From a virus (lineage: Duplodnaviria; Heunggongvirae; Uroviricota; Caudoviricetes), in the IMG/VR virus record IMGVR_UViG_2582580966_000010: 14,048 nt of DNA, one strand, 5' to 3'. Position numbers and translations under genes: made by a program. The stretch's first letter is position 1, and the number at the start of each line of letters is the position of its first letter. Below the pieces are notes generated by a model. It made no database searches. It saw only the letters and a list, made by a program, of their open reading frames with translations, and was not told the DNA's origin. This document shows positions 478 to 12,447 of the stretch, in pieces.

Positions 478-804
478 TCAGGGTGCAGAAGGACTAAAGA
501 TAAACGTTTTCTTCACGCCTTTACACGGCCTGTCCTTCTCAAATCGCCATTTTGCCATCGCCTTTACAACCTGCTCATCAAACAAATGGTGCGGCTCTGA
601 ACGGATAAACTCAATTCGGGTGACAGTACCATCAGCACCAATATCAAACTTCACATCAACCCGTCCCTTTATATAATTTGCCGCTGCATAGGCCGGATAT
701 TGTGGTAATGCCTTAACCAACTGTCGGGGCATATCTGTTTTATGTTGCGTACAGCCCATAACCAGAGAAGACAACAAAATAATTAACGGAAGGTTTCTTT
801 TCAT
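478..804 (-). CDS. Lipoprotein with TonB C-terminal-like domain
   Basis: Signal peptide with lipobox-like LVMGC (MKRNLPLIILLSSLVMGC). The C-terminal region PQYPAYAAANYIKGRVDVKFDIGADGTVTRIEFIRSEPHHLFDEQVVKAMAKWRFEK matches the TonB_C/TolA-C fold signature. ATG at 804 has GGGA placed 6 nt upstream; the ORF track begins at an upstream GTG (819). Confidence 0.55.
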   Translation of the reverse strand: MKRNLPLIILLSSLVMGCTQHKTDMPRQLVKALPQYPAYAAANYIKGRVDVKFDIGADGTVTRIEFIRSEPHHLFDEQVVKAMAKWRFEKDRPCKGVKKTFIFSPSAP

Positions 805-1148
805 TTTCATTCCCGGCACAGATAAGAATAAGTCTTATTCTAACAATGCCACCCTGTCGGTCATCAATCCTCTGCTTAATGGCAACGACAATTATCCGAC
901 TTAAATCACAAATCAGACACATGACATAACAGAGCTTGCGAGGTAACACATCGTCCGGTTTCTTCCACCATCGCACCGGACCAGCGACCATGAGGGGACA
1001 ACGCCGCGCTCCGTTAACACGGTAAACCCCGGTGTGTATCGTTTTTGATTATCCCCGCACACTCGCGCAGAGGAGTCTCCCGGTCGGGCTGCGGTCTCTG
1101 TTAATGCGGGGATACGGCGACAATACCGCGCATGGTTAATAAGGTCGC

Positions 1149-2302: not shown

Positions 2303-2836
2303 TTATCTGTCAATTCCCCAGCACGCCAGCGCACTCTCCTGGTCGCGACGGGATACCTGACCGTAACAGTTGTTTGAGCGAATACGGCAGTCTCTGCCAC
2401 CGTCCTTAATCCACCAGCGAATCGCTTCGCATGCTCCCCTGCGATCACCTGCATTAATTCGTCTGTAAAACGTCGACGGGAAACACTTACCGGGACCAAT
2501 GTTGTACGGACAGAATGACGCGATCCCCGCTTTCTGGGGTTCGGTCAGCGGCACTCTGATGTTTTTCTCCACCCACGCCAGCGCTTTATCACGCTCAATG
2601 GCGTTAACCTGGTCGCATTTTTCCTTCGACAACTTCATGCCCGGAACGACAGGTTTGCCATCCACCATGATGGCACCACGGCAGATGGTCCAGATACCCG
2701 CACCATCACGGTATGCCGTGGTGTGGTTGCCTTCTTTTTCATCCAGAAACTGGTCGAGAATTTCAGGCGCAGACGCACCAGCGGCAATCAGCGCCAGAAC
2801 GGCAGCCGACAGGCCGTATCTGATTTTTGCGTTCAT
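2303..2836 (-). CDS. R: SAR (signal-anchor-release) endolysin, T4-lysozyme-like muramidase (GH24)
   Basis: Gly/Ala-rich weakly hydrophobic N-terminal SAR segment (YGLSAAVLALIAAGASAPEIL), followed by the catalytic E-x8-D-x5-T spacing (EGNHTTAYRDGAGIWT) seen in phage 21 R-type lysozymes. It pairs with the upstream pinholin. Confidence 0.9.
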   Translation of the reverse strand: MNAKIRYGLSAAVLALIAAGASAPEILDQFLDEKEGNHTTAYRDGAGIWTICRGAIMVDGKPVVPGMKLSKEKCDQVNAIERDKALAWVEKNIRVPLTEPQKAGIASFCPYNIGPGKCFPSTFYRRINAGDRRGACEAIRWWIKDGGRDCRIRSNNCYGQVSRRDQESALACWGIDR

Positions 2837-2961: not shown

Positions 2962-3237
2962 ATGAGTGAAGAAAATAGCAAAGAGAATACAGCACTTTTT
3001 GACAGAATTTTTACTCTTGAGTTACAGGTCGGTTTTCTTCTCCCAAAGATAATCAAAGCAATGGATGCACTAAGTAAAAATAACGCTGTGTCAGATTACC
3101 TGATCGCCGAAATGGAACATCTAATTAAAGAAATACCAAAGACAGTTGCTCGTGATGATAAAAGATTCCTCAAGGCTGCTGAAGATGCTCTTTCAACAGT
3201 GAAGCGCAGCTTAGATGCGCCGCGCGATCAAGAATAG
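2962..3237 (+). CDS. Hypothetical 91-aa helical protein, antisense to the late operon (moron-like)
   Basis: ATG at 2962 with SD AAGGA at 6-nt spacing. AT-rich. The opposite strand over 2837-3169 has no ORF. It is followed by its own plus-strand intrinsic terminator. Its 3' end overlaps the 3' end of the converging 176-aa gene by 68 bp. Confidence 0.5.
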   Translation: MSEENSKENTALFDRIFTLELQVGFLLPKIIKAMDALSKNNAVSDYLIAEMEHLIKEIPKTVARDDKRFLKAAEDALSTVKRSLDAPRDQE

Positions 3238-3700
3238 TTTCTTTCATTTCATCTGCTGCAAGCACCTCATTTTTTGTTGGGGTGCTTTTTTTCAATTCAG
3301 CGATATAGCACTCCAGTTTTTCAATGCGTGATTCAATATCATCGTTTTCTGACCGCAATGCCGTCGGTGGCGTCTTCAGAGAACCAGTAATTATTCCCGG
3401 TAGTTTTCCTCTGTAGGTTATCAACACATCCTGCGCCTCTAAAATTATGGGGCGCTTTTCCGGCAACGGACCATCCCCTTCACATAACCCGGCAGCAACA
3501 TCCATGAAAAACTGCTTCGCCTGCTTTTTCGCCTCAGCTTCGTAAAACTCCAGCGTGGCATCTTCAGTACGGTCAAGACTAATCGCCACATCTGGCAACA
3601 ACAGTGACGGATACCCACCAATTTCCAGTGCCACAGTAACAGTAATCTTATTCGGGTAATTATTTATCCCTTTAACAACCAGTTCGTATTTTTTCTTCAT
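3170..3700 (-). CDS. Hypothetical 176-aa protein translationally coupled downstream of the holin
   Basis: ATG at 3700 lies 4 nt after the holin stop, with a GGAGAG SD inside the holin 3' end. Predicted C-terminal coiled coil (ENDDIESRIEKLECYIAELKK). No motif I recognise. Confidence 0.6.
   Translation of the reverse strand: MKKKYELVVKGINNYPNKITVTVALEIGGYPSLLLPDVAISLDRTEDATLEFYEAEAKKQAKQFFMDVAAGLCEGDGPLPEKRPIILEAQDVLITYRGKLPGIITGSLKTPPTALRSENDDIESRIEKLECYIAELKKSTPTKNEVLAADEMKETILDRAAHLSCASLLKEHLQQP
3261..3292 (+). terminator. Intrinsic terminator for the plus-strand 91-aa gene
   Basis: AGCACC...GGTGC stem followed by TTTTTTT on the plus strand only; the minus-strand RNA has no U-tract after the hairpin. 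The loop is long (14 nt), so confidence is moderate. Confidence 0.4.
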
Positions 3701-3704
3701 CGCT

Positions 3705-3920
3705 TTACTCTCCCCGCGCCGCCTTACGACGGTCCTCTCTGATTTTGAAATACAGGTTAGTCAGATATGTCAGCAGCCCAAACAGCAGACTTCCCAGTAC
3801 GCCTATTGCCGCCCACTGAGACGGGGAAACCCTGTCCAGCAGCTGCAGGAACCAGTAGCCCGTTCCCACCGCTGACGTGGTGTATGACACACCTGTTGTG
3901 ATTTTTTCCATCTGGTACAT
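3705..3920 (-). CDS. S: Class II holin (phage 21 S-like pinholin)
   Basis: 71-aa ORF. The sequence [51 protein letters not shown] is near-identical to S21/EssD-type holins as remembered. Possible dual-start motif M1-Y-Q-M4. Strong SD (GGGAG). Confidence 0.9.
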
Positions 3921-4633: not shown

Positions 4634-6577
4634 TTACGGGTTATTCACTTCCACTGCGATACTGTCAATCAGTACCGGGTAAGTCGCATTTTTAGTGATA
4701 TCGGTCACGCGCAACTTGTCTGCCGTAAACGTGCCGACCGGAGACTGCGACAGCATGAATGGTGTCCCGTCCTTACCATCAATGACCGGCGTCACCTCAA
4801 TACTGTTGTTACCGGCAAAACGGAAGCCCAGCGTATGCCATTCGTTATTAAATGCGCCGAATGACCCCAGCTTCGTGTTCTGCGCCGTGTTTCCTTTGTG
4901 ATACATCACGTTAAGGTCTGTGGCATCGCTCTGTACGTAAAACGATGCCAGCAGGTTATGACCGGCATTACCTTCCAGTGTGACGCCCTGAGGAAGCGAA
5001 GAAACCGGCCAGTACAGCGCCAGTGCGTACTGATTAGCCGTAAGCGCGCCATCGAGTTTAAAACGACAACTGACAAGACCACCTTTACCCAGCAGGTCCG
5101 CACCATTACCAGCATCATGCTCAAGGTACCAGGGGGCTCTTCCTGTTTCCTTGGTCAGTTTCATTGCCTTACCCCCGCTGGCTCCGGCATCATCCACGAT
5201 TTGAGCCTTGCCACCTCCGGCAGCCCAACCCTGTGGTGTCAACCGTCCTTCAGACTCAGATGCCCGGTAAGCAAATAGCGTACTCATCGTCGTGGTGTCT
5301 GCGGGTGGCGTGGACGGTTTTGATGGTGTATCAGGTGACGGCTTCTCATCCGGTGGTGTCACGGTCTGCCCGCGCATCAATTCAGCCGTGCGCCCTGCAT
5401 GGAGCATAATAGCTGAGGCCAGACGGTCTGAAATGACGCCCCTGCGTGCCCATGAGCTGAAATGGCTGTCACGCTGTGTCGAAACAAAACTGCCCTGGGT
5501 TCGGGATGCTGCACCGTAATACCCGACAGCCACAATATCCGGGTCTTCCGCCGGAGCATTCGTTGGCGTGCTCTGTCCATTCTCATCCGTCAGGAACGGT
5601 ACAAAGAAAATATTCTGTGCTTCCCTGCCCTTGTAACCGCCATATACCGCCTCATATTTATCGGCGTTAAGATTCTTCCAGTAATACGTGGTGTCACCAC
5701 AAATCCACGGCACCGAGCCAGCACTTCCGCCAACACACTGTGCAGAATATGCAGCCATATCAGCCCTGAACTGCTGCACCATAGTGGTAAACAGGCCGCT
5801 GTGCTGCTGACTGCCGTCCGCAAGATCATTTTCCCCCTGCATCCATACCACGGCCAGAAGCCTGTTTTTCGGGTTCTTCGACAGCGCCGCTTTTGTACGG
5901 AAGAGAAAATCCTGATACAGCGGTTTACCCACTCCCCAGCGGGCTGAATTTGCCGATGCGCCAGACGTTTCGCTGAACGTGCCGTCATTACCCACGGTTA
6001 AACCAGCCCCGCCACGGCAACAGGGCACCAGAAGAATCCCGGCATTCTGCGGGATATAAGGCAGAAGTTTTTTGGCAATATGCAGCCCCTGACCGACAGT
6101 CCCGTACTGGCCCTTACTCAGGTCTGCATGAGGATGGTTAAGTGCGCTCATGTCCTGAACATCATGCAGACAGTGGTCTGCCGGAATAACGTCATTGTAT
6201 GCACAGGTATCACCACCCGGCGTCACAGTGCTGCGACGGGCCAGCTGCTTAATACGGGAGTCAGGGCGATCATAGGTCTCCGGCAGAGGAAGCCCCTCAC
6301 CATAGGCCATACCGTTCGACTGCCCGGCCAGGGGAATAACGTAGTAATACTCCGGTTCAGTGGTAGCCACTCCCGGAGAGCCACCAGCCCCTGTGTCGGG
6401 CACAACCACAGGCGTGGTCACATCACCCTCTGCGGCAATGGCCTGCATCAGTGTATAAGGCGTGATAGCCACAGGACTGCCAAACGGCTGCCAGCCTTCC
6501 TTCAGTTTTTGTGTCAGTCGCTCCGCAAGGTCTGACGGCGACGCCGCCCTGACCACGTCATAGTGTTTAAATGCCAT
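4634..6577 (-). CDS. nanS-p: Prophage-encoded sialate O-acetylesterase (NanS-p-like; DUF1737 N-domain plus SASA/SGNH esterase plus C-terminal lectin-like domain)
   Basis: 647-aa ORF. Start chosen at MAFKHYDVV (ATG 6577) with a strong SD (GGAGGA); the ORF track begins 10 codons upstream. It carries the SASA-family catalytic serine motif GQSN (YYYVIPLAGQSNGMAYGE) and the conserved block VVWMQGENDL. Its position between the tRNA/cargo site and the holin matches the large esterase ORF downstream of stx in Stx phages. Confidence 0.8.
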   Translation of the reverse strand: MAFKHYDVVRAASPSDLAERLTQKLKEGWQPFGSPVAITPYTLMQAIAAEGDVTTPVVVPDTGAGGSPGVATTEPEYYYVIPLAGQSNGMAYGEGLPLPETYDRPDSRIKQLARRSTVTPGGDTCAYNDVIPADHCLHDVQDMSALNHPHADLSKGQYGTVGQGLHIAKKLLPYIPQNAGILLVPCCRGGAGLTVGNDGTFSETSGASANSARWGVGKPLYQDFLFRTKAALSKNPKNRLLAVVWMQGENDLADGSQQHSGLFTTMVQQFRADMAAYSAQCVGGSAGSVPWICGDTTYYWKNLNADKYEAVYGGYKGREAQNIFFVPFLTDENGQSTPTNAPAEDPDIVAVGYYGAASRTQGSFVSTQRDSHFSSWARRGVISDRLASAIMLHAGRTAELMRGQTVTPPDEKPSPDTPSKPSTPPADTTTMSTLFAYRASESEGRLTPQGWAAGGGKAQIVDDAGASGGKAMKLTKETGRAPWYLEHDAGNGADLLGKGGLVSCRFKLDGALTANQYALALYWPVSSLPQGVTLEGNAGHNLLASFYVQSDATDLNVMYHKGNTAQNTKLGSFGAFNNEWHTLGFRFAGNNSIEVTPVIDGKDGTPFMLSQSPVGTFTADKLRVTDITKNATYPVLIDSIAVEVNNP

Positions 6578-6660
6578 TATTCCTCCCCTTTCCGGGATTT
6601 TCCTCAACAGTTGCGGGCCACGGTCCGGCTACACGGAGAATCAAAAGAGGAGAACCGCAG

Positions 6661-6696
6661 CCCGCAAAACGAAAAAGGCCGCGCAGTTGCGCAGCC
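6661..6696 (-). terminator. Intrinsic terminator (minus strand) upstream of nanS-p
   Basis: Minus-strand RNA forms GGCUGCGC-aacu-GCGCGGCC (8 bp including one G-U pair), followed by UUUUUCGUUUU. Confidence 0.45.
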
Positions 6697-6760
6697 TTAT
6701 CACAGATGGTAAAAATCAGAACACGATAATAAAAATACCTGATGTATATTCATGCGCCCC

Positions 6761-6788
6761 GCCCGCCACTCACTGCGGGCTTTTTTTT
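6761..6788 (+). terminator. Intrinsic terminator (plus-strand orientation)
   Basis: GCCCGC-cactcact-GCGGGC followed by T8 on the plus strand. Confidence 0.5.
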
Positions 6789-6796
6789 GCCCATAG

Positions 6797-6823
6797 AAAA
6801 GCCCCTCCGGAGAGGGGCTTTTT
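6797..6823. terminator. Bidirectional intrinsic terminator downstream of the TerB operon
   Basis: AAAA-GCCCCTC-cgga-GAGGGGC-TTTTT: a perfect 7-bp GC stem with an A-run and a T-run on either side. Confidence 0.55.
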
Positions 6824-7063
6824 ACAGTGGTAGTGTAGACAATTTTGCATGGTGCCGGGTGCCTCCCGGTGAGTTCAGTATCAGCACCTGAACCCGCACA
6901 GAAAGGATAAGGGTCGGTGACAAAACACCAGTTGCTGATTGCCCCTCCGCACAGGGGGATTCACCATGCCAGTTTCTTTTAACAAACTCCCCGCAAACCA
7001 GACAACAGTCAACCGCCTGAATTGTGAGGTATTTAAAAATTTCAACGGGTAACTGATACCCTG

Positions 7064-7225
7064 CTAATCGCCTGATGCTTTCTTTTTCAGCAACGGGAAA
7101 GCAACAACCACCACACCCGCCACCAGCACACCGTCAGCCAGCACTGACATTATCCGGCTGCTGAAGTCCACCATCACCACCATCACTACCAGAAACAGCA
7201 GGAGCGCAACCACAGCCAGACGCAT
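7064..7225 (-). CDS. Hypothetical 53-aa hydrophobic microprotein (predicted two TM segments), coupled to the TerB-like gene
   Basis: Translated by hand from the reverse complement: MRLAVVALLLFLVVMVVMVDFSSRIMSVLADGVLVAGVVVVAFPLLKKKASGD. The ATG at 7225 lies 8 nt after the TerB stop. It falls below the 60-aa cutoff of the ORF track. Confidence 0.4.
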   Translation of the reverse strand: MRLAVVALLLFLVVMVVMVDFSSRIMSVLADGVLVAGVVVVAFPLLKKKASGD

Positions 7226-7233
7226 TTTTACCG

Positions 7234-7665
7234 TCACAGATGATTCTCCAGACGAAGGCCCAGAACACCGGCAATCTCTTCCAGCACCTTGCGCTCTTCC
7301 GGCTCTATTTCGCCGTCTGCTTCGGCAATGGCCACCGCCACATCCAGCACGTCTTCCGCTTCACGCGTATCGTGTTTCACATCCTCGATCTCACGTAACG
7401 CCGCTCGACGACCAATTTTAAAGTTCGTATCCAGCTGACCGATAATGGTTGCGCTAATCGCATTAATTTCTGACGTAAACGCGGACAACGCAGGCTGGTT
7501 ACGCAAGACCTGCTCGATCTTCGCTTTCTCTGAAGCCTCACATTCACCATCTGCATAGGCCACCAGATAGGCAGCATTAATAACCGCCTGTGCCAGATCA
7601 CGTTTCTCAAACTTTTTAATTTCCACTGCCGCTCGGCGGGCTTTTTTACCAAAAATACCAAACAT
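7234..7665 (-). CDS. TerB-family (tellurite-resistance TerB-like) protein
   Basis: 143-aa ORF from MFGIFGKK (ATG 7665, SD AAAGGA). Two TerB-type repeats (AAYLVAYADGECEASEKAKIEQVL and DVAVAIAEADGEIEPEERKVLEEIAGVLGL) match the helical motif of TerB proteins. Confidence 0.7.
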   Translation of the reverse strand: MFGIFGKKARRAAVEIKKFEKRDLAQAVINAAYLVAYADGECEASEKAKIEQVLRNQPALSAFTSEINAISATIIGQLDTNFKIGRRAALREIEDVKHDTREAEDVLDVAVAIAEADGEIEPEERKVLEEIAGVLGLRLENHL

Positions 7666-7835
7666 CGTGACGTTCCTTTGGGTGGGTGAGCCAACGCCCG
7701 GGAGCGATCTGCCCACAGAGAAAGTCACACTGACCACTCCGTAAGCTCACCCCCGAAAGGCTCTGTGGTTGATATGCGCCGGGCGTGGCGCGGATACAAA
7801 AAAGGCCCGCAAAAGCGAGCCGGGAAAAATAAGTC

Positions 7836-7912
7836 TGGCGCGTTGTACTGGATTCGAACCAGTGACCGATTGCTTAGAAGGCAATTGCTCTGTCCGGCTG
7901 AGCTAACAACGC
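7836..7912 (-). tRNA. tRNA-Arg (anticodon UCU)
   Basis: Hand-folded cloverleaf: acceptor GCGTTGT/ACAACGC, D-arm GCTC...GAGC, anticodon stem ATTGC/GCAAT with loop CTTCTAA, T-arm CTGG-TTCGAAT-CCAG, then discriminator and an encoded CCA. Confidence 0.8.
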
Positions 7913-7928
7913 AGGATACAGATAATGA

Positions 7929-8002
7929 ACCGCCTTCGGGGATCCGAACTCCGCGCAACCAGCTTCGAAGGCTGGCGCTCTTTCCTGATGAGCTAATGGC
8001 GG
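7929..8002 (-). tRNA. tRNA-like gene, Arg (anticodon UCG), imperfect and without encoded CCA; possibly degenerate
   Basis: Cloverleaf with anticodon stem CCAGC/GCTGG and loop CTTCGAA. The acceptor stem has one A-A mismatch and the T-stem one A-C mismatch. The 3' end is followed by TCA rather than CCA. Confidence 0.5.
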
Positions 8003-8009
8003 TATGTGA

Positions 8010-8085
8010 TGGTGGCCCTTGCTGGATTTGAACCAGCGACCTGGCGATTATGAGTCGCTCGCTCTCACCACTGAGCTAAAGGGCC
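8010..8085 (-). tRNA. tRNA-Ile2 (anticodon CAU, ileX/ileZ-like; a Met assignment cannot be excluded from sequence alone)
   Basis: Sequence GGCCCTTTAGCTCAGTGGTGAGAGCGAGCGACTCATAATCGCCAGGTCGCTGGTTCAAATCCAGCAAGGGCCACCA. The anticodon stem-loop matches E. coli ileX-type tRNA as remembered. Perfect acceptor stem and an encoded CCA. Confidence 0.8.
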
Positions 8086-8113: not shown

Positions 8114-8827
8114 TCAATAATCAAGCCCTTGCCTGGATACATATCTGTCTGGCGGGAAGCCATAATAGCGGTGAAATACAGAAATAAAGTAGGACCTGCT
8201 TGAATAACCGCATTTTTCTGCTATAGCCTGTCCATATCCATGCCGGGAACATAACATATTTACAGCAACACGCATCCGCTCTTCCAGCAACAAGCGACTG
8301 AACATGCCCCCTTCATTTTTCAGTTTTGTCTTTAACAAACTCTCACTCATATGCAACTGTAGAGCAATCGCACAAAGCGTCCAGCTTGCTGATATATCTG
8401 TCTGAATTATCGCCCTGACTTTGGCACTTATGCTGGATAAACATCCACTTAAAAACAATGACATCCGTTCATCTGTTTCAAACAGAGACAGGCAGGCCAT
8501 CATAAGAAACATATCCGTGGCCTCTCCGGAAAATCCCTGGCTGGTAATTAAAGCCGCAGCCAACGCAGGATTGTTGGGTTCCAGCAACAGGTAAAGCGGA
8601 ATGTCAGTCAGACGAGTCCTCGTCAGCTTATGCTGACTTTCCAGATATTGACTTACGACGGATTCGCTTATATCGACAATTTTAACTTTGCCATAATGCA
8701 TAAGGAAAAGCTCCCTGATGCATTTGGTGGCCAGAACAACTGAGCCTGGCTTAAGTGACAACGTATCCTTTTCAAGAAAAATATTAATTGGGGAGCAAAC
8801 CATGATAACTGAACAGACAACAGCCAT
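8114..8827 (-). CDS. AraC-family transcriptional regulator (AppY-like, no sugar-binding domain)
   Basis: 237-aa, AT-rich ORF. The C-terminal dual HTH region (WTLCAIALQLHMSESLLKTKLKNEGGMFSRLLLEERMRVAVNMLCSRHGYGQAIAEKCGYSSRSYFISVFHRYYGFPP) is typical of the AraC family, and the N-terminus MAVVCSVIMVCS resembles AppY. Confidence 0.75.
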   Translation of the reverse strand: MAVVCSVIMVCSPINIFLEKDTLSLKPGSVVLATKCIRELFLMHYGKVKIVDISESVVSQYLESQHKLTRTRLTDIPLYLLLEPNNPALAAALITSQGFSGEATDMFLMMACLSLFETDERMSLFLSGCLSSISAKVRAIIQTDISASWTLCAIALQLHMSESLLKTKLKNEGGMFSRLLLEERMRVAVNMLCSRHGYGQAIAEKCGYSSRSYFISVFHRYYGFPPDRYVSRQGLDY

Positions 8828-8960: not shown

Positions 8961-9158
8961 TCAGGACTGAAGGCGTCTGTAACAACCGCACTGATAGTCT
9001 GCCAGACCCACCATAACAAGCTGGGTCAGTATTAACTGGCAGCGTTCGCGTGAAAGGTAAGTATTCTGCGCAATCTCCCCGACGGTCGCCGGTTCGGTGA
9101 CGCTTAATTCATTAAACACCACTCTGGCGGTTTCTGTCATATCCTGCTGTTTTAGCAT
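8961..9158 (-). CDS. Hypothetical 65-aa protein, possible winged-helix DNA-binding fold
   Basis: Start chosen at MLKQQDM (ATG 9158), which has an SD-like GGAAAAGGGA upstream. The segment ATVGEIAQNTYLSRERCQLILTQLVMVGLADY resembles a recognition helix plus wing. The upstream ORF-track extension is Cys-rich and unlikely. Confidence 0.35.
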   Translation of the reverse strand: MLKQQDMTETARVVFNELSVTEPATVGEIAQNTYLSRERCQLILTQLVMVGLADYQCGCYRRLQS

Positions 9159-9280
9159 GTCTTTTTCCCTTTTCCGGTTAACGTGACACACCAATAACTC
9201 TTGTCGAAAAAGCCAGCAAGCTGAAAGACAGGTATTCACCGCCACCAGCGCGTTTACTGTACTGACGCGATTTCAGTCAT

Positions 9281-9303
9281 AAAAAACCCGCCAGGCGGCG
9301 GGG
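9281..9303 (-). terminator. tR'-like intrinsic terminator downstream of Q
   Basis: Minus-strand RNA: CCCGCC-gccu-GGCGGG followed by UUUUUU. The plus-strand RNA has no U-tract. Lies about 80 nt downstream of the Q stop. Confidence 0.55.
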
Positions 9304-9344
9304 TGTAAAAAATCTTCTAACGTCAGGCATAAAACGCCCATCGT

Positions 9345-9380
9345 TAGAGCGAATTTACCACAGATTCGGGAAAAATCAAC
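9345..9380 (-). promoter_or_regulatory. Candidate late promoter pR' (sigma70, extended -10) immediately downstream of Q
   Basis: On the minus strand: -35 TTGATT (9379-9374), 16-nt spacer, TGg-TAAATT extended -10 (9357-9352). The predicted short transcript would end at the terminator at 9281-9303, matching the lambdoid pR'-qut-tR' arrangement. Confidence 0.4.
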
Positions 9381-9384
9381 AACA

Positions 9385-10206
9385 CTATCGCGTTACCCTC
9401 TTTAACTGCCGCTCCGCCCATGCCTCTTCAATGTCAAACCGAACCACCAACGTATCGTAAAAGCGTTTCACTGATTTTTTCCACGTATCAAGCGTGATAG
9501 CACTCGTCACTTTGCATATGGCATTAAATGCCTCCGTTGATGGTAGTCTTTCACAGCCACGACCACCACAACGCTGGCAGTCTCTGATAACAGGCATACC
9601 ACGTTTTACCGACTCTTCACGATGAATGGCGACACCACGCCCACGGCAATCCTTACAGGCGGTGGAAACCTCACCCTTTCCGCCACACTCCGGACAGGCA
9701 ACTTTTACCACCTCCCTGACTTTTTTCCATTCTTCCCAGTAAGACGGATACACACCTTTCGTACACTTTGCCCATACCGGCGGCTTACCATCCGGATACT
9801 GGACCTTGTTTGTAAAAACTACGCTTTCAATAAATTTTTCCCCATAGCAACAAGGGCACTGCTTTTTACTCGCTGCGCTGCGGGCATAATCCTCAAAAGC
9901 GTACGAAGCCATAATGCGCATCACTACCGGTTTTATTTCTGCCGGGAGTTTTCTTAACGCCGCCACGCGATCACACCGACTGAGTGCATATTCTGTCAGC
10001 AATTCTGTTGCCCGCTCTCTGTCATTCATACTAATGCCCATTTTCCCAAGGAACGCAGAAAACCCCATCCCAGCCCGATTCTGTGTCATGCCCTGCGCGG
10101 CCATCACATCAGTGATACTCAGCGCATCTTTCGACGTTGAGGCCGATGCATCAGTCAGGCCGGGGGATTTTGGGGAGTAGTATTTCGGTAAATCTTCCAG
10201 TTTCAT
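9385..10206 (-). CDS. Q: Late-gene antiterminator Q (QuuQ-like)
   Basis: 273-aa ORF. The N-terminus MKLEDLPKYYSPKSPGLTD...SITDVMAAQGM matches Qin QuuQ-type Q as remembered. Several CxxC pairs suggest a zinc-binding domain. It lies between rusA and pR'/tR'. Confidence 0.8.
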   Translation of the reverse strand: MKLEDLPKYYSPKSPGLTDASASTSKDALSITDVMAAQGMTQNRAGMGFSAFLGKMGISMNDRERATELLTEYALSRCDRVAALRKLPAEIKPVVMRIMASYAFEDYARSAASKKQCPCCYGEKFIESVVFTNKVQYPDGKPPVWAKCTKGVYPSYWEEWKKVREVVKVACPECGGKGEVSTACKDCRGRGVAIHREESVKRGMPVIRDCQRCGGRGCERLPSTEAFNAICKVTSAITLDTWKKSVKRFYDTLVVRFDIEEAWAERQLKRVTR

Positions 10207-12080: not shown

Positions 12081-12236
12081 TTACTCCTCAGGTTCGTAAG
12101 CTGTGAAGACAGCGACCTCCGTCTGGCCGGTTCGGATTCGTACCTCGCAGAGGTCTTTCCTCGTTACCAGTGCCGTCACAATGACGGTTAAACAGATGAC
12201 GATCAGGGCGATTAGCATCGCCTTTTGCTGCTTCAT
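12081..12236 (-). CDS. hok: Hok-family type I toxin (identical in sequence to HokD/RelF as remembered)
   Basis: Hand translation gives MKQQKAMLIALIVICLTVIVTALVTRKDLCEVRIRTGQTEVAVFTAYEPEE (51 aa): one TM helix plus a periplasmic tail with conserved Cys. Confidence 0.9.
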   Translation of the reverse strand: MKQQKAMLIALIVICLTVIVTALVTRKDLCEVRIRTGQTEVAVFTAYEPEE

Positions 12237-12293
12237 AGCCTGCTTCTCCTTGCCTTTCGGCACGTAAGAGGCTAACCTACGTGTGTAGAGCAT
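12081..12293 (-). CDS. mok: mok-like overlapping reading frame (same frame as hok, upstream start)
   Basis: In-frame upstream extension MLYTRRLASYVPKGKEKQA running into hok, as in hok/mok/sok loci where mok translation is needed for hok translation. Confidence 0.55.
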   Translation of the reverse strand: MLYTRRLASYVPKGKEKQAMKQQKAMLIALIVICLTVIVTALVTRKDLCEVRIRTGQTEVAVFTAYEPEE

Positions 12294-12447
12294 AGATATG
12301 GCCTCAGATTAATGTTAAGCGTCTTGCCGGACGCGTAATGTTAACTGGGGCTTTTCTCTATCTGCCTTTTGGTGTTCATGCCTGAGACAGATAGCCTCAA
12401 GCACCCGCTGCAATTCTACTTAACTCTCCTTTTCCCGCAAACCGTTT

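Follow-up and report, generated by a model that had tools for sequence, protein, structure and literature searches.

The closest described relative of the locus considered here is the tci operon of bacteriophage P1, in which tciA, a gene of the TerB family, is followed by tciB, a DUF3927 gene that overlaps the tciA stop codon, and then by tciC; these names were reportedly given in the P1 genome paper. The same succession of a TerB-family gene and an overlapping DUF3927 gene is annotated in the phages D6, JLK-2012 and CharmingMan and is represented by PHROG families 632 and 1470, and it is also what we find at positions 7064 to 7665 of the DNA analysed in this work, the Caudoviricetes record IMGVR_UViG_2582580966_000010 of 14,048 nucleotides (nt), hereafter the window, where all the genes around the pair lie on the minus strand. 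The locus is thus the tciA-tciB cargo (“moron”) cassette known from P1, already named and annotated and not new. It is inserted among the late genes of a lambdoid prophage of E. coli, in the position of stxAB, and we lean slightly towards a role at the membrane during the lytic cycle.

In the literature the tci genes appear as a variable region, tciABC being absent from about half of one P1 subgroup (PMC9603915), and all three score as non-essential in P1 under CRISPR interference (CRISPRi; PMC10695390); tciA and tciB have been regarded as possible fitness morons in a tRNA region (PMC6799933). A lytic N4-like phage is noted to have a TciA homologue, “role unknown” (PMC4319500), and for the standalone TerB of Erwinia jumbo phages a role in competition with superinfecting phages has been proposed (PMC7824862). 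The window pair resembles the P1 operon in being phage cargo, often in a tRNA-rich region, and non-essential. It differs in lacking tciC, as the 65 nt between tciB and the gene of the small RNA (sRNA) STnc100 hold no third hydrophobic open reading frame (ORF); in its neighbourhood, which is a lambdoid late operon between tRNAs and an esterase gene instead of the dmt-ban interval; and in a three-codon duplication within tciB. The ORFs following tciB in the phages ChrisDB and CharmingMan are not hydrophobic, which places tciC outside the conserved core.

Other comparable systems share the TerB domain. In the ter cluster (terZABCDEF) a TerB-fold gene also stands directly upstream of a membrane-protein gene, and TerB is reported to be a partner of TerC at the inner membrane (PMC11003894). 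However, TerC is a large integral membrane protein, unrelated to TciB with its 57 amino acids (aa) and two hydrophobic segments, the similarity of TciA to the solved TerB of the ter cluster is only E 6e-8, and the ORFs of the window include no other ter gene (no TerA, TerZ, TerC, TerD, TerE or TerF), so that co-location with a ter cluster was not found. TciA, for its part, is not known to confer resistance. In DjlA, where the TerB domain lies beside a membrane helix, as in the DUF533 proteins (PF04391), Bunzi and Shango, a TerB-like domain likewise works next to a membrane anchor, and TerB has been reported to be membrane-associated and to occur as a domain in the Shango and Bunzi defence systems (Millman preprint). 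There, anchor, J-domain or enzymatic domains are fused to it or it is encoded with helicase or ATPase partners, whereas in the window a separate, coupled gene encodes the anchor, and an enzymatic partner is lacking. A PADLOC search returned for TciA only a sub-threshold similarity to PDC-S48 (E 0.0032, 14.6 bits) and for TciB no match, and no helicase or ATPase gene is a neighbour of the pair in the window.

With regard to position, the counterpart is stxAB of the Shiga toxin (Stx) phages, which like tciAB lies downstream of Q and of tRNAs of the ileZ-argN-argO type and upstream of an STnc100-like stretch and a nanS-p esterase gene. Both are two-gene cassettes in a Q-dependent late transcript, presumably so in the case of tciAB. 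The Stx proteins themselves are unrelated to TciA and TciB: they form a toxin that is exported and targets the animal host, whereas TciA and TciB are intracellular and membrane proteins.

The tciA and tciB genes and their products

The features of the cassette itself are the following:

7666..7803, minus strand: tciA leader, with an AAGGA Shine-Dalgarno sequence at 7678-7674
7234..7665, minus strand: tciA, 143 aa, from ATG 7665-7663 to TGA 7236-7234; PF05099
7234..7249, minus strand: coupling junction, GGAG 7249-7246, an 8-nt spacer, and GTG 7237-7235 over TGA 7236-7234
7064..7237, minus strand: tciB, 57 aa from GTG 7237 to TAG 7066-7064; PF13064

An initial annotation of this DNA had assigned a TerB fold to the 143-aa protein, and this assignment is borne out: TciA is a full-length cytoplasmic TerB-fold protein. 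It matches the Pfam TerB family PF05099 with 59.8 bits (cut-off 24.4; E 3.9e-16) over profile positions 2-109 of 118, the above-mentioned similarity to the solved TerB extends by sequence over residues 15-137 (Klebsiella, 2jxu), and its AlphaFold2 (AF2) model, made with 27 homologues, is confident and all-helical (predicted local distance difference test, pLDDT, 88.7; predicted template modelling score, pTM, 0.83) and matches TerB-like folds; it also matches, weakly, DUF533 (PF04391) and the DjlA model of NCBIfam. The protein has two ADG-x5-E motifs (D39/G40/E46 and D117/G118/E124), which in two alignments vary little or not at all, and we take these residues to be the proposed ligand or metal site of TerB. 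Residues 1-24 are basic (+4.5) and amphipathic, and the remainder is a strongly acidic (-12) helical bundle. The relationship with P1 is direct, given that P1 TciA is 52.8% identical to the window protein across 143/143 residues; TciA also matches phrog_632 over its full length (E 3.2e-69), and P1 TciB is a strong DUF3927 member (E 1.7e-26).

The second component had been described as a hydrophobic protein of 53 aa beginning 8 nt after the TerB stop codon. The small protein is a real gene product with two hydrophobic segments: the downstream ORF matches Pfam DUF3927 (PF13064) with 71 bits (cut-off 25; E 7e-20 to 9e-20), which puts it far beyond a chance ORF, and PHROG 1470 “TciB-like” at E 8.8e-21, and by hydropathy and alignment its two hydrophobic stretches are split by D-F-S-S-R, and both of its ends are basic. 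On the simplest reading, following the positive-inside rule, TciB would form a hairpin in the membrane, its N- and C-terminus facing the cytoplasm. A tblastn search of the phage collection with the 53-aa protein gave no match, probably because of the low-complexity filter, TciB having been identified by Pfam, PHROG and alignments.

The coordinates of both ORFs proved exact when the ATG, TGA and TAG positions were re-read, and the 53-aa frame is correct from ATG 7225, but the start of tciB is most likely GTG 7237, giving 57 aa and a coding sequence (CDS) of 174 nt that overlaps the tciA stop as GTGA. This start is better supported because of that overlap, because of the GGAG that precedes it, because RefSeq annotates exactly the 57-aa, 174-nt CDS in a 100%-identical locus, and because the homologues, P1 TciB among those aligned, keep an N-terminal M-x-x-K-x-R which the extra residues from GTG 7237 fit. 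The window allele carries a 9-nt tandem duplication (VVM; region 7171-7179) in the first hydrophobic segment, which makes 57 aa against 54 aa in the commoner allele; the exact 57-aa sequence is present on 443 contigs of a public collection, and the duplication allele is therefore presumably functional.

The pair has not gone unnoticed, tciA and tciB of P1 having their own Pfam and PHROG families. In PHROGs both are placed in the category “moron, auxiliary metabolic gene and host takeover”, phrog_632 under the name “tellurite resistance” and phrog_1470 under [quoted passage not shown]; the RefSeq labels are “tellurite resistance TerB family protein” and “DUF3927 family protein”, and in phage JLK-2012 a stretch that is 95% identical bears the names tciA/tciB. 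The tciB gene was missing from the ORF list on which that first description relied, but it has not been overlooked generally, RefSeq and GenBank annotating it as “DUF3927 family protein” or “TciB”. By megablast, at least 80% of the 602-bp pair is carried by 789/5426 complete E. coli genomes, O157:H7 included, in up to eight places per genome.

Conservation of the pairing and its phage contexts

A total of 128 loci with a TciA homologue were compiled, comprising 80 IMG/VR prophage contigs (96-100% identity), 36 species genomes (38-97%) and annotated phages; the IMG/VR relatives, all of them 96-100% identical, are informative on the integrity of the ORFs, and diversity was supplied by the GTDB genome scan. 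Downstream sequence was enough for a judgement in 124/128, and among these the partner of TciA was of the DUF3927 type in 111 and of a second type, found in Pseudomonas, in 10, with no partner in the remaining 3 (one E. coli prophage, through a deletion, Sinorhizobium phage phiM5 and Vibrio phage K479); this tally was made with hidden Markov models built from the same loci and is therefore descriptive and not an independent test, the alignments themselves being unambiguous. In every one of the 121/124 loci with a partner, its gene starts within -5 to +7 nt of the tciA stop, and the pairing is kept from 100% to about 33% TciA identity, in temperate as well as virulent phages. The TerB gene and the small membrane-protein gene are consequently a conserved coupled pair, as the initial annotation had supposed; it had also said that a small ORF without conservation, or a TerB gene always found alone, would speak against the idea, and neither situation was encountered (121/124 loci paired).

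The Pseudomonas partner is a protein of 67-73 aa with a single N-terminal hydrophobic helix and a tail with the conserved pattern C-x2-YG-x-QTER-x-T…VGCMV…W-x-PR-x-E-x-R, which includes two Cys. It was seen only in Pseudomonas phages and prophages (AF, Zuri and nine genomes; the partner loci are L005 1932-2153, L131 1643-1846, L100, L102, L104, L106, L109 and L112-L114), and in PHROGs it is family 27356, “unknown function”. The possibility that it is a divergent TciB was rejected, as hhalign gives a probability of 0.7% between the two families, and the Pseudomonas phages use a non-homologous, single-pass membrane protein as partner at the same coupled position. That the partner is replaced while the coupled arrangement is kept argues that TerB and a small membrane protein form a functional unit. 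As regards existing annotations, the partner gene of phage AF is unannotated, and the labels of phage Zuri look shifted, with “dCTP deaminase” on the TerB gene and “tellurite resistance protein” on the partner.

Some variants of the pair were also seen. Rare database proteins join TciA to TciB through a frameshift at the overlap (P0127, 197 aa; P0185, 170 aa), which may be a real mutation or a sequencing error, and a Pantoea prophage has a second, divergent TerB-like ORF (L093 4203-4616; PF05099 E 9e-5, just under the cut-off) about 0.8 kb downstream of tciAB. A truncated DUF3927 remnant without tciA is present in many E. coli (L124 3986-4117, in CFT073; L125 3024-3140); such remnants belong to decayed prophages, in which iraM adjoins a truncated esterase gene, and in about 1570 genomes the match covers no more than a part of the pair. 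In a sampling anchored on tciA, every solo DUF3927 gene that was examined proved truncated. The pair is dispensable for plaque formation, as the P1 CRISPRi results, its loss in the P1 subgroup and the truncated remnants in CFT073 and others attest.

All the loci whose flanks were checked are phage or prophage, the flanking ORFs of several genome loci having no Pfam match. In lambdoid prophages the order is Q, tciAB and then lysis genes (Pantoea, CharmingMan and Actinobacillus pPE4, as Q-tciAB-lysozyme or tciAB-holin); in P1-like elements it is dmt, tciAB and then ban/DnaB; and the strictly virulent carriers are the N4-like phages Salmonella SP-058 and Pseudomonas Zuri, the Erwinia jumbo phage ChrisDB and Pantoea LIET2. 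An obligatory link of tciAB with tRNAs was considered and dropped: a tRNA lies within 3 kb in only about 9/40 diverse loci, and the association is thus incidental.

The stx-equivalent slot and the probable late transcript

In the order of their transcription, the features surrounding the cassette in the window are:

9385..10206, minus strand: Q antiterminator (Pfam PF03589, E 9e-51)
9287..9379, minus strand: putative pR' and tR', directly after the Q stop; TTGATT 9379-9374, a 16-nt spacer, TAAATT 9357-9352, then AACGATGGG
9302-9287, minus strand: putative tR' hairpin with a T-run (scan and fold)
8961-9245, minus strand: small ORF with no Pfam or NCBIfam name; phrog_331 (unknown function)
8114-8827, minus strand: AraC-family regulator, between Q/tR' and the tRNAs
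7836..8085, minus strand: tRNA cluster, with a CAT-anticodon tRNA, Arg(tcg) and Arg(tct) (ARAGORN, Rfam, RefSeq)
7804..7821, minus strand: intrinsic terminator-like hairpin in the gap between tRNA-Arg(tct) and tciA (folding free energy, dG, -14.0 kcal/mol; z score -3.6)
6789..6998, minus strand: sRNA STnc100 (Rfam RF02076, full length, 145.6 bits, E 6.5e-33)
6795-6826, minus strand: STnc100 terminator (dG -23.1, z -5.3)
6675..6698, minus strand: second terminator-like hairpin, upstream of the esterase gene (dG -19.2, z -4.3)
4634-6607, minus strand: nanS-p-like esterase (DUF1737, SASA and DUF6645)
between esterase and holin, minus strand: DUF1378 and DUF826 genes
3705-3920, minus strand: holin
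3170-3700, minus strand: DUF1327 protein of 176 aa, between the holin and lysozyme genes
2303-2836, minus strand: lysozyme
after lysozyme in transcription order, minus strand: Rz/Rz1

The order of Q, tRNAs, cargo, esterase and lysis genes recognized in the initial annotation is confirmed, and it is the same as in an Stx2a phage: WGPS6 has Q, ileZ-argN-argO, stx2A-stx2B, a region matching that of STnc100, a 645-aa esterase, two small genes, holin, endolysin and Rz, and Shigella phage 75/02 has the order of WGPS6 minus the tRNAs. The tRNA trio of the window corresponds to ileZ-argN-argO of this layout, and the Stx phages match the window at about 6775-7027, the STnc100 stretch, so that tciAB sits exactly where stxAB lies and the proposal of an stx-equivalent cargo position holds. 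STnc100 is the downstream boundary of the cargo slot, common to the Stx phages, and a relaxed Rfam scan of 6550-7850 gave STnc100 and nothing further. In this connection, the prophage sRNA PasD and STnc100 have been modelled in one consensus structure, with pasD directly upstream of the esterase gene, and TerB is listed among the conserved neighbours of the PasA and PasC sRNAs (PMC13192938, a 2026 preprint).

The hairpins at 6661-6823, which had been said to bracket the pair, are all on its downstream side, one of them being the STnc100 terminator, and on the minus strand the hairpin at 6761-6780 is no better than shuffled sequence; the upstream terminator of the pair is the one at 7804-7821, past tRNA-Arg. 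A simple consensus scan of the minus strand from 7804 to 7665 found no sigma-70-like site. The cassette therefore lies between terminators, downstream of Q and without a detectable promoter of its own, and the most economical reading of these elements together is that tciAB would be read mainly by Q-modified polymerase after induction, like stx2.

The putative source of the transcript reading through tciAB is the pR'/tR' region after Q, where TTGATT/TAAATT, AACGATGGG and the hairpin resemble what we take to be the lambda arrangement of pR', pause element and tR'; we infer this promoter, which scores 8/12 and is under the scan threshold, by eye and from that likeness. Quite probably, then, the Q-antiterminated late transcript is the main source of both proteins, and the cell makes about as much of one as of the other. 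Independent support for expression in the lytic phase comes from P1, where tciA, tciB and tciC are transcribed during P1vir infection, that is, in lytic growth, and where TciA peptides were detected in purified virion preparations.

Some neighbouring features may be mentioned in their own right. The AraC-family regulator has its top NCBIfam similarities to YdeO and GadX, both under the cut-off, and a promoter-like site of its own at 8890-8863 (score 10/12); it presumably resembles the prophage-encoded PatE/Psr regulators of enterohaemorrhagic E. coli. A 65-aa version of the small ORF 8961-9245 is labelled TrmB family regulator in RefSeq. The CAT-anticodon tRNA (8010-8085, minus strand) is “Met” according to ARAGORN and tRNA-Ile in RefSeq for an identical gene, and corresponds to ileZ in the Stx phages, a naming that implies a lysidine-modified anticodon. 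In the closest E. coli genome (S1-CAM-01-A) a YdfR-family gene occupies the slot of the DUF1327 gene. Downstream of the lysis cassette there is a lipoprotein-like ORF of 113 aa with a TonB C-terminal domain (478-819, minus strand; PF03544, E 1.4e-14), at whose place phage JLK-2012 has a “TonB family protein”, and the DUF968-RusA-Q block has a type I toxin-antitoxin locus, hok/sok, upstream of it (12081-12406, minus strand; sok RNA RF01794, 117 bits; Hok/Gef ORF PF01848, E 2.9e-23).

A possible role at the membrane and its alternatives

If TciA and TciB are a unit, an analogy with TerB-TerC, with DjlA and with the reported membrane association of TerB suggests that they may act together at the inner membrane. 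TciB would be an inner-membrane hairpin that recruits, or is the partner of, the acidic TciA at the cytoplasmic face, a step to which we give an even chance; the charges fit, TciA having a basic amphipathic N-terminus and an acidic body and TciB basic ends. More tentatively, the complex would act in lytic development by protecting the inner membrane of the producing cell, the insults guarded against being the entry of DNA from superinfecting phages, pore-forming colicins, or a premature loss of membrane potential. A protective role is favoured because the phenotypes of the ter cluster beyond tellurite are phage inhibition and colicin resistance (PMC9603915, PMC4319500), because of the proposal made for the jumbo phages, and because a partner specific to the host clade fits a target in the envelope. 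In its most general form, the idea would be that TciA and its partner are a minimal, self-sufficient TerB module which in lytic growth blocks the DNA of competitor phages or pore-forming colicins at the inner membrane, a proposal that we regard as possible but doubtful, and whose membrane subunit would be swapped by host clade, with DUF3927 serving in Enterobacterales, Pasteurellaceae and Aeromonadaceae and an unrelated single-pass protein taking its place in Pseudomonas.

Several points weigh against this picture. In the AF2 model of the natural frameshift fusion P0127 there is no confident packing of TciA on TciB (pTM 0.62), and the TciB part appears as one long helix with pLDDT 50-77, although this run neither supports nor refutes a contact as such. 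The TerB genes of Vibrio K479 and Sinorhizobium phiM5, with no small membrane gene adjoining them, indicate that TerB can do without a neighbour of this kind, and the loci were sampled from TciA outward, which bears on any count of tciB without tciA. The absence of a promoter was established by a simple consensus scan, so a non-canonical or regulated promoter, as for stx1, is possible. Finally, in the literature we found no experiment on the function of TciA or TciB, and the tci name was given by homology only.

Among the other explanations, the one nearest to the initial annotation is abortive infection, in the manner of a toxin-antitoxin pair: TciB would be a membrane-damaging toxin checked or triggered by the TerB sensor TciA, and the lysogen would be killed upon infection by another phage. 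This would suit the translational coupling of a small hydrophobic protein with a soluble one, the occurrence of TerB domains in Shango and Bunzi and the phage inhibition by the ter cluster, and also the truncation of all the sampled DUF3927 genes without tciA, as expected if a lone intact toxin were intolerable; ordinary prophage decay, however, explains these remnants equally. Moreover, the best PADLOC match (E 0.0032) is not credible, strictly virulent carriers gain nothing by killing their host early, no promoter for expression in the lysogen is visible, and P1 transcribes its tci genes in its own lytic growth. The carriage by virulent phages, this P1 transcription, the TciA peptides in virions and the placement in a late operon argue for a function that serves the phage in lytic growth and not for abortive infection, which we judge improbable; the defence part of the earlier proposal has no direct support, while its other element, “membrane stress”, is still plausible in a broad sense. 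A similarly low probability attaches to resistance conferred on the lysogen against tellurite, oxidative or metal stress, as by the plasmid ter cluster, despite the homology with TerB and the “tellurite resistance” annotation, the view of tciA and tciB as possible fitness morons (PMC6799933), and a slot in which cargo that affects the host, stx for example, is classically carried. Against it, no further ter gene is present among the window ORFs, terBCDEF is the smallest construct cited as giving resistance, with TerC regarded as the key protein (PMC11003894), and according to the authors of the PMBT3 study terB by itself ought not to make a cell resistant; in addition, the pair lies between terminators without a promoter and is also carried by virulent phages.

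An accessory function in the timing of lysis, whereby the pair would modulate holin triggering or the membrane potential just before lysis, seems very improbable to us. It would agree with the place of the pair between Q and the holin and endolysin genes in lambdoid prophages and in Actinobacillus pPE4, with the late transcript that it shares here with the lysis genes, and with the size and the two hydrophobic segments of TciB, which are those of many holins and antiholins. However, adjacency to an endolysin gene across relatives, as expected of a holin or antiholin, was not found: P1 and P1-like elements have the pair between dmt and ban, in the N4-like and jumbo phages it adjoins no annotated lysis gene, and in the window 3.1 kb (STnc100, esterase, DUF1378 and DUF826) separate it from the holin gene, the window having its own holin, endolysin and Rz/Rz1. 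The least probable of these explanations, and pure speculation, is that TciA is an anti-defence decoy which, by mimicking the TerB-domain proteins of the host (Ter, Shango, Bunzi), would stop them from signalling. Phages are known to counter host defences by encoding homologues of defence domains, and the occurrence of TerB in defence systems and of the pair in virulent phages is in keeping with such a role, but a decoy does not obviously need a dedicated membrane partner specific to the host clade.

As a discovery the locus has little weight, given that the pair has long had a name, as well as Pfam and PHROG families of its own, and that hundreds of E. coli genomes carry its annotation; being already known and annotated, it is of low novelty. 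The cassette is, in any case, common: at least 15% of complete E. coli genomes have it, O157:H7 several times over, as do P1 and phages of the N4-like and jumbo groups; it holds the same slot of the late operon as the Shiga toxin genes, and it contains the enigmatic TerB domain. What the present comparison adds as a starting point are two arguments, namely that the partner is exchanged by host clade with its coupling kept, and that carriage by virulent phages points to a role in the lytic cycle. If the pair were indeed a minimal TerB module, experiments on what TerB senses or does in the ter cluster, in DjlA, and in Shango and Bunzi would have in it their simplest point of entry.

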